From a virus (Duplodnaviria; Caudoviricetes): 64,000 nucleotides of DNA. Numbering within the stretch: the stretch's first letter is position 1; each line of letters begins with the position of its first letter. The translations under genes were made by a program, and so were the position numbers. Below the pieces are notes generated by a model. It ran no database searches, was not told the origin of the DNA, and saw only the letters and a program-made list of their open reading frames with translations. Below, one piece after another: positions 52,890 through 53,118 of this stretch. The DNA lies in IMG/VR virus record IMGVR_UViG_3300025133_000020; one strand, written 5' to 3'.

Positions 52890-52992
52890 GGTCGTATAGC
52901 TCAGTGAAGAAGATTATTTATCCTTCGGGATATTGAATTTAAGGAGCGTCATCTAAGGATGAAGGTCGGTGGTTGAAATCCATCTACGACCA
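52890..52992 (+). ncRNA. tRNA-like RNA with expanded D-loop (UUCG hairpin) and 4-nt anticodon loop
   Basis: perfect GGTCGTA/TACGACC acceptor; GCTC/GAGC; TCATC-TAAG-GATGA; T arm. Confidence 0.75.
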
Positions 52993-53005
52993 CTACAAAT
53001 CACAC

Positions 53006-53118
53006 GGGCGTGTGGTGTAATGAAGAGAATATGATGTTATTAGTCACCACTGATAATTGATTCGAGCACTCTATCCATTAAGGATAGGAGTTGGTAGGTT
53101 AAATTCCTCTCACGCCCA
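53006..53118 (+). ncRNA. tRNA-like RNA with expanded D-loop and CATTAAG anticodon loop
   Basis: perfect GGGCGTG/CACGCCC; GTGT/GCAC; CTATC-CATTAAG-GATAG. Confidence 0.75.

Follow-up and report, generated by a model that had tools for sequence, protein, structure and literature searches.

Stable RNAs that are not transfer RNAs (tRNAs) have long been known in phage tRNA clusters. Phage T4 annotates two of them, the small stable RNAs species 1 (rnaC) and species 2 (rnaD), at the end of its tRNA cluster, and to our knowledge their function has never been established. A second group, the YrlA type of Y RNAs, mimics tRNA, and it includes a member that RNase P cleaves and that acquires CCA (PMC4201824). 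Phages encode YrlA-type RNAs as well, and such an RNA can share its transcript with another small RNA (PMC4201824, bioRxiv 10.1101/312249, PMC12135203). Here we describe E1 and E2, two tandem tRNA-like RNAs at positions 52890-53118 of a 64,000-nucleotide (nt) stretch of viral DNA from the Caudoviricetes (IMG/VR record IMGVR_UViG_3300025133_000020), the whole of which is called the window below. They provide a clean, covariation-supported example of such RNAs with a defined architecture, in which the acceptor/T half is intact, the anticodon is gone and an arm is added at the elbow. E1 and E2 would be functional, non-decoding tRNA mimics that mature in the manner of tRNAs and bind a tRNA-recognising protein, a reading in which we place about even confidence.

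The two genes are given below with the evidence for each. L115 is a related marine phage contig, reached via the zinc-ribbon protein encoded upstream (84% identical), and R1 is a covariance model made from E1 only.

52890-52992, plus strand: E1, tRNA-like RNA (Rfam tRNA 40.8 bits; minimum-free-energy (MFE) cloverleaf, z = -2.83; L115 orthologue)
53006-53118, plus strand: E2, paralogous tRNA-like RNA with a longer D-loop arm (R1 36.3 bits; MFE z = -2.81; L115 orthologue)

As the first-pass annotation had described, the two RNAs are adjacent and tRNA-shaped, with perfect 7-base-pair (bp) acceptor stems that differ in sequence. The acceptor of E1, GGTCGTA/TACGACC (52890-52896/52985-52991), is followed by the discriminator A at 52992, and its D-stem has 4 bp (52899-52902/52944-52947). 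The D-loop of E1 begins AGTGAAGA, with the motif AGTGAAGAA at 52903-52911, and holds the extra arm, a 28-nt hairpin (52912-52939) that consists of a 4-bp outer helix, a 3x3 internal loop with TTG on its 3' side, a 5-bp inner helix and a UUCG loop. The site of the anticodon arm is taken by a 5-bp hairpin with the 4-nt loop TAAG (52949-52962), and the T-arm (52968-52984) has the loop TTGAAAT. In E2, the acceptor GGGCGTG/CACGCCC is also perfect and the discriminator is A. Its D-loop begins AATGAAGA and holds a longer hairpin than that of E1, the T-stem has one bulged U, and the loop at the anticodon position is CATTAAG, with TTA at positions 34-36, A37, A33 and a possible C32-G38 pair. The D-loop starts, the hairpins with an internal loop and the two anticodon hairpins all read as first described. 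Both RNAs have the 7-bp acceptor, the discriminator, the 5-bp T-stem with a 7-nt loop (apart from the bulged U in E2) and the 3-4-bp D-stem of a tRNA.

The Rfam tRNA model aligns with E1 end to end, well above its gathering score of 29 bits (E 8e-7); it treats 37 bases of the D-loop as an insertion and leaves only 4 for the anticodon loop. E2 is not reported by Rfam even at E up to 10, and ARAGORN and a default whole-window Rfam scan miss both. R1 finds E2 with an E-value of 3.7e-7 in 199 kb, a score that exceeds that of every canonical tRNA of the window; the top one of these, a tRNA with a CUA anticodon at 52380-52453, reaches 29 bits. Single-sequence MFE folds give the cloverleaf with the extra arm for both E1 and E2 (z about -2.8 each).

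The main evidence comes from an alignment, A4, of E1, E2 and their two L115 orthologues, fitted to the model. Standard pairs are formed in 98.3% of its 117 cells, with 2 of the 117 unpaired, and half of the 30 pairs (15) are changed on both sides. Every helix contributes to these changes, the outer and inner helices of the D-loop arm included. None of 500 column shuffles reaches any of five measures, slid controls in which the partners are moved by 1-3 columns give 36-45% paired and 0-3 double changes, and RNAalifold on A4 predicts the same 30 pairs. Between E1 and its L115 orthologue, for example, G1-C72 becomes A1-U72 and a U-A pair of the outer arm helix becomes C-G. The first-pass annotation had argued from the preserved pairing against simple decay and had proposed a covariance model with a covariation test; with homologues carrying compensatory changes now found in L115, that argument holds, and because of the covariation E1 and E2 are regarded as selected structures. 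At the level of sequence, all helices of E1 and E2, extra arm included, are shown to be under purifying selection.

All four sequences share U8, A14, G53-C61, the discriminator A, the D-loop string A-R-U-K-A-A-G-A and a 4-bp outer helix, the 3' side of the internal loop of the arm is UUG or UUA, and the inner helices are capped by UUCG, UUCG, UACG or CACC. The 15:48 pair is G:C in both E1 copies and A:U in E2, and in the E2 orthologue A stands with C; the change between G:C and A:U is classical Levitt-pair covariation. The tip at the anticodon site is UAAG on 5 bp in E1, GGAA on 6 bp in the E1 orthologue, CATTAAG in E2 and 23 nt in the E2 orthologue, and a conserved 7-nt anticodon loop with U33 is absent across the four copies. 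G18G19 occurs in none of the four, and position 56 of the T-loop is G, G, A or U, never C. A G at D-loop position 17/18 stands with U55 of the T-loop in three copies, and U stands with G in the fourth. This possible swapped 18:55 pair, a single event, hints that the D- and T-loops still touch.

Some further motifs were tried and rejected. A kink-turn at the D-stem fits E2 only, not E1 or the E2 orthologue. The Shine-Dalgarno-like or CsrA-like AAGGAU at the hairpin tip was dropped as a defining feature, being absent in the E1 orthologue with its GGAA tetraloop, and pairing of the D-loop GA with the UUG of the arm, as Y RNAs have it in their Ro-binding helix, clashes with the outer helix, which covaries.

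With canonical tRNAs (RF00005), E1 and E2 have in common the acceptor, the D-stem, the T-arm, U8, A14, the 15:48 pair and the discriminator A, and E1 passes the Rfam threshold. What sets them apart is the arm of 28-45 nt added in the D-loop, together with the lack of a conserved 7-nt anticodon loop, of G18G19 and of C56. The same phage has rewired tRNA-Ile genes, in which a hairpin nested inside the D-stem bears a normal anticodon loop, while the hairpin of E1 and E2 is tetraloop-ended. The tRNA-like domain of transfer-messenger RNA (tmRNA) and the tRNA-like structures at viral 3' ends are also anticodon-free acceptor/T mimics handled by tRNA enzymes. However, those domains sit in larger RNAs and have a reduced D-loop or pseudoknots, whereas E1 and E2 each stand alone as a full cloverleaf to which an arm is added. 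Since the anticodon loop and the G18G19/C56 elbow both fail, E1 and E2 are classed as a new variant of phage tRNA-like stable RNA.

YrlA RNAs, which in bacteria and phages are partners of Ro60/Rsr, resemble E1 and E2 in being non-decoding tRNA mimics with conserved D and T arms. They are circularly permuted, with the ends forming the Ro-binding stem at the anticodon position and the acceptor stem being a closed hairpin, whereas the parts of E1 and E2 stand in the normal order; YrlA also keeps the G18G19/C56 elbow, which E1 and E2 do not. The Ro-binding stem of YrlA carries the motif GNCGAA(N)G (PMC4201824). E1 and E2 have no GNCGAA and no CGAA, the nearest string being UGAAGA, and Rfam gives no Y-RNA match in the window.

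The likeness to T4 rnaC and rnaD lies first in the setting, where non-tRNA stable RNAs stand in a phage tRNA cluster with a GIY-YIG gene beside them and a deoxynucleoside monophosphate (dNMP) kinase gene nearby. The 3' 92 nt of species 1 (NC_000866 70908-71046; L147 1909-2047, minus strand) can be drawn tRNA-like, and the drawn fold has an acceptor-type stem, an enlarged D-loop, a hairpin (6-nt loop) without a proper anticodon loop, and a canonical T-arm. Unlike E1 and E2, rnaC has a canonical T-loop with C56 and is extended far at its 5' end, and its D-loop bears no tetraloop-capped rod. Because model R2 gives rnaC only 9.7 bits (E 0.43), the match in setting and in tRNA-like ends is taken as analogy, not as homology or as membership of a defined family.

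The region of E1 and E2 reads as one putative stable-RNA transcription unit of about 600 nt, from promoter to terminator, and there is no convincing open reading frame (ORF) in 52757-53596. Its other parts are listed here; L003 is a contig whose CCA-adding enzyme is 97% identical to that of the window.

52818-52846, plus strand: operon promoter TTGCAT, 17-nt spacer, TATATT (read from the sequence)
52849-52889, plus strand: leader with the boxA-like GGTTCTTTGAAA (pairwise alignment with L115)
53119-53221, plus strand: RNA A, a structured RNA directly 3' of E2 in the same transcription unit (fold; copies in L115)
53222-53285, plus strand: E3, a mini tRNA-like RNA (MFE z = -4.15; related mini-helices in L003 and L115)
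53286-53400, plus strand: RNA B, a structured RNA with a long closing stem and the canonical T-arm TTAAGG-TTCAATT-CCTTAA (sequence and fold)
53435-53460, plus strand: intrinsic terminator with a 9-bp stem, a UUCG loop and a U run (read from the sequence)

At the orthologous promoter position, L115 has the consensus TTGACA-17-TATATT; the window promoter is not listed by a simple consensus scan because its -35 box matches at 3/6 positions. The leader, boxA-like string included, is about 100% identical to L115 over about 45 nt, against 80-86% for the flanking genes. E3 is built of a 7-bp acceptor-type stem, one long hairpin, a T-arm-like hairpin and the discriminator A. The copies of RNA A in L115 come after a tRNA-like element, and an orthologue of RNA B ends the L115 operon, at the end of which there are an analogous hairpin and a T run. 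All of the tRNA-like genes end without an encoded CCA. E1 and E2 have the same 3' trailers as the bona fide tRNAs of the window, an A followed by CTAA or CTAC.

The orthologous operon of L115 (about 10220-11230) is expanded. Its order is E2-like, E1-like, Y-like, mini-helix, structured RNA, mini-helix, Y-like, mini-helix and B-like. The E2 orthologue (10285-10401) stands first and the E1 orthologue (10412-10518; 105 bits) second, which is the swapped order relative to the window. E1 is 89% identical between the window phage and L115, and the neighbouring genes are 80-86% identical. Between the zinc-ribbon gene and the RNA operon, L115 carries a cassette (6625-10222) with a TonB-dependent receptor, a nicotinamide mononucleotide transporter and a NadR-like protein.

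In L003, the E1 and E2 RNAs are identical to those of the window. This contig has an extra 179-nt unit (7404-7582) between E3 and B, inserted after the position equivalent to 53285, which consists of a structured RNA and a second mini-helix (GGGGGTG...CACCCCC). Both ends of the indel read ...CCCCA up to the boundary and CTA beyond it, so that recombination between mini-helix ends seems to be what lengthens and shortens the RNA array. Identical contig pieces, covering about 3/4 of the stretch with no variants, also come from four marine DNA runs (three studies, dated 2017-2023), and these add no independent support for selection.

Beyond these contigs, the searches found little. Motif pattern scans of viral, metagenome and genome contigs gave no further member, and the same scans also missed the window's own contig and L115; their matches, rescored with the model, are ordinary 72-74-nt tRNAs or chance matches. 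Megablast and blastn of GenBank phages found no relative, and tblastn of GenBank phages with the CCA-adding enzyme found distant huge phages only. In the neighbour-protein search of viral contigs, only the mobile GIY-YIG gene gave loci, none of them syntenic. The E1/E2 family was found in two close phage lineages only.

The window is phage-like, with nearly all large ORFs on the plus strand and a G+C content of 38%, and its nearest protein matches are huge or jumbo phages. The carrier of E1 and E2 is a marine jumbo phage. DnaJ, ClpP, a PTH2 peptidyl-tRNA hydrolase and a dNMP-kinase-like protein are encoded near the two RNAs, a small zinc-ribbon protein of 95 amino acids is encoded just upstream of the RNA operon (52469-52756), and a larger tRNA array starts near 60 kb of the window. 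Other neighbouring features are as follows.

50201-50562: tmRNA, the phage's own and a separate gene (Rfam scan)
52380-52453, plus strand: canonical CUA-anticodon tRNA upstream of E1 and E2 (ARAGORN; Rfam 66.4 bits)
53597-54196: GIY-YIG/NUMOD3 homing endonuclease gene, directly after the RNA operon
55302-56501, plus strand: phage gene for the CCA-adding enzyme, or tRNA nucleotidyltransferase (Pfam PolyA_pol 2.5e-38; PHROG tRNA nucleotidyltransferase 4e-57)

The GIY-YIG/NUMOD3 gene is taken to be mobile, since its relatives (in L001 and L002) occur in unrelated contexts. The gene for the CCA-adding enzyme lies 2 kb downstream of E1 and E2. A Y RNA would be expected to have a Ro60/TROVE gene within about 4 kb on its own strand; no TROVE or DUF2828 match was found among the ten larger ORFs scanned in 49455-57883, which are those of about 95 amino acids or more outside 51310-51622.

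More distant relatives, with a CCA-adding enzyme that is 60-65% identical (L004-L014), differ at the same site. The place that PTH2, the CUA tRNA and the E1/E2 operon occupy in the window lineage, flanked by the tmRNA and the dNMP kinase gene, holds a gene for a ribosomal protein S21 homologue in L004 (8739-8927) and the syntenic loci. An 86-nt element of these relatives was first taken as an anticodon-less analogue and then dropped, as it is a tRNA-His (GUG). This tRNA (L008 12838-12926; L010 and L012 12988-13076) has an 8-bp acceptor and a long extra arm capped by GAAA, in which one pair covaries from C-G to U-A. An element at 12976-13062 of L008 resembles a tRNA-Trp (CCA) whose variable region contains an insertion. 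It seems to be common in this phage clade for tRNAs that otherwise decode to have unusual insertions. L012 (2073-6955), L013 (182-5064 and 11928-13172) and L014 (2141-7023) carry Cas3-HD, Cas7fv-like and Cas6 genes in the interval from clpP to the tmRNA region, and one of these contigs also has a Cas12f1/TnpB-like gene.

The acceptor/T half of a tRNA is the part that is recognised by RNase P, the 3' end enzymes, the CCA-adding enzyme, EF-Tu and several toxins. E1 and E2 keep this top half (7-bp acceptor, discriminator A and T-arm) together with the D-stem, U8, A14 and 15:48, and a conserved rod-like arm is inserted in the position-20 region of the D-loop. As non-decoding mimics, they would be released by the tRNA machinery, which would cut the primary transcript into separate RNAs, with RNase P acting at the 5' ends. 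Trimming 3' of the discriminator is suggested by the trailers, which match those of bona fide tRNAs of the window, and the phage CCA-adding enzyme (55302-56501) would complete the 3' ends. Mature E1 and E2 would stay out of decoding and associate with a protein whose target is the acceptor/T half of tRNA, and for this protein the D-loop arm may be a specific handle.

That protein may belong to a phage set for RNA repair and quality control, along with the putative Y-RNA-like RNAs, tmRNA, PTH2 and the CCA-adding enzyme, in which case E1 and E2 would be scaffolds. Alternatively, tRNA acceptor ends may be the target of the protein, as a toxin or a factor of the host, in which case they would be decoys. 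Both settings are plausible. Jumbo phages combine TROVE proteins with tRNA-like partners (PMC7824862), and a phage Ro60 binds host PNPase and phage Y-like RNAs (PMC12135203). A YGAAG string follows just after the closing helix in the D-loops of E1 (52903-52910) and E2 (53019-53026) and in several mini-helices; E3 of the window (53228-53233) and E3x of L115 read UGAAA at this site, and an L115 mini-helix reads GACGAAG at 10910-10916, the exact GNCGAAG motif of Ro-binding Y RNAs (PMC4201824). The recurring UGAAG string, as a pointer to the scaffold setting, is a weak lead. The first-pass suggestion of a tRNA mimic with an extra arm is supported as far as sequence can carry it, since fold and arm covary in paralogues and orthologues and the anticodon loop is unconserved. 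Anticodon nucleases and RelA had been named there among the possible targets of a decoy; an RNA that lacks the anticodon loop would serve poorly to distract an anticodon nuclease.

Several points weigh against non-decoding mimics with a protein partner. The covariation comes from four sequences of two close lineages in a model-fitted alignment. Relatives L004-L014 have neither E1 nor E2 within 10 kb of the syntenic region, and the pair is thus a lineage-specific accessory. DUF2828 is seen only in relatives without E1 and E2, and the protein that bears it there does not match any solved Ro60 structure in sequence. A partner that reads acceptor pairs 1:72 and 3:70 is made less likely by the differences at both pairs between the E1 orthologues, in which the acceptor stem is not fixed.

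A bolder form of the mimic reading, tentative and somewhat unlikely, is that E1 and E2 represent a new class of three-armed, CCA-tailed mimics that would serve either as an acceptor-end sponge against host immunity enzymes or as a subunit of a phage Ro/TROVE RNA-repair particle. The arm and the rebuilt elbow would then let the phage present many acceptor ends that are barred from the ribosome, and the sponge would take up those immunity enzymes of the host whose cuts or modifications fall on the 3' ends or the acceptor stems of tRNAs.

E1 and E2 could instead be processing punctuation, marking the RNase P and 3' end cuts that free the neighbouring Y-like RNAs and being themselves by-products, much as mascRNA lies next to MALAT1 and tRNAs punctuate mitochondrial transcripts. 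The operons are arranged in a way that suits this role. In three operon versions, each Y-like RNA (near AACCAT) starts 5-15 nt past the discriminator of a tRNA-like RNA or mini-helix (E2 before A and E3 before B in the window; E1', E3y and E3' before Y-like RNAs in L115), and either E1 or E2 can precede a Y-like RNA, because their order is swapped in L115. However, a mini-helix such as E3 suffices for cutting, and a covarying D-stem, a D-loop motif and an arm of 28-45 nt exceed what cutting needs. Two full elements are also kept in tandem, one of which does not adjoin a Y-like RNA. On these grounds we think it rather doubtful that punctuation is their main role.

A role as amino-acid carriers outside translation is more doubtful still. 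An anticodon-blind synthetase (Leu-, Ala- or Ser-type) would charge E1 and E2 after CCA addition, the amino acid would go to a non-ribosomal transferase, and the altered elbow would bar the ribosome. The intact acceptor/T half, A73, which is invariant in all copies, and the genes for the CCA-adding enzyme and the PTH2 peptidyl-tRNA hydrolase nearby are consistent with such a role, and loss of C56 and G18G19 would weaken contacts with the ribosome and with elbow readers. Against it, Pfam and PHROG scans of the neighbouring ORFs found no aminoacyl-transferase gene near the operon, there is no G3:U70 and no G73, and pairs 1:72 and 3:70 differ between the E1 orthologues.

That E1 and E2 are real decoding tRNAs is very improbable. 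The first-pass annotation had offered two versions of this, E2 as an ochre-reading (UUA) partner of the CUA tRNA and both RNAs as precursors with a D-loop intron. E2 does have a 7-nt loop with TTA at 34-36 and A37, the CUA tRNA lies 550 nt upstream, and tRNAs of the clade with odd insertions, such as the tRNA-His of the relatives with its long extra arm, keep their anticodon. But 23 nt replace the CATTAAG loop in the E2 orthologue, the loop of E1 has 4 nt and that of the E1 orthologue is a GNRA tetraloop, and E2 itself has A33 and the possible C32-G38 pair. Among the 41 large ORFs of the window, 34 end in TAA, and this, with the unconserved loop, leaves the ochre suppressor without support. 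The intron fares no better, since excision of the arm would leave a D-loop that lacks G18G19 facing a T-loop that lacks C56. UNCG-type loops cap the arm, whose helices covary. Rfam gives no match to group I or any other intron family, and a bulge-helix-bulge motif is absent, the loops that flank the 4-bp helix not being opposed 3-nt bulges.

Decaying tRNA pseudogenes that keep a cloverleaf by chance, as might be read from the failure of ARAGORN with both RNAs and of Rfam with E2, the degenerate anticodon loop and a narrow family with no homologue in the viral, metagenome and genome pattern scans, are scarcely credible in the face of the 15 double compensatory pairs out of 30, the 2 unpaired cells out of 117, the greater conservation of E1 than of the flanking coding DNA, and a promoter-to-terminator unit with a conserved leader.

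The narrow E1/E2 family is a good lead and not yet the discovery of a mechanism. Genes such as these are overlooked by standard tRNA finders. E1 and E2 lie in a dedicated operon with putative Y-RNA-like RNAs, beside genes for tRNA end repair and ribosome rescue. Should they prove to be an acceptor-end sponge or a subunit of a Ro/TROVE particle, they would give the first functional lead for the T4 species 1 and 2 RNAs. They are a concrete object for studying tRNA mimicry by phages, be it as decoys, scaffolds or carriers.

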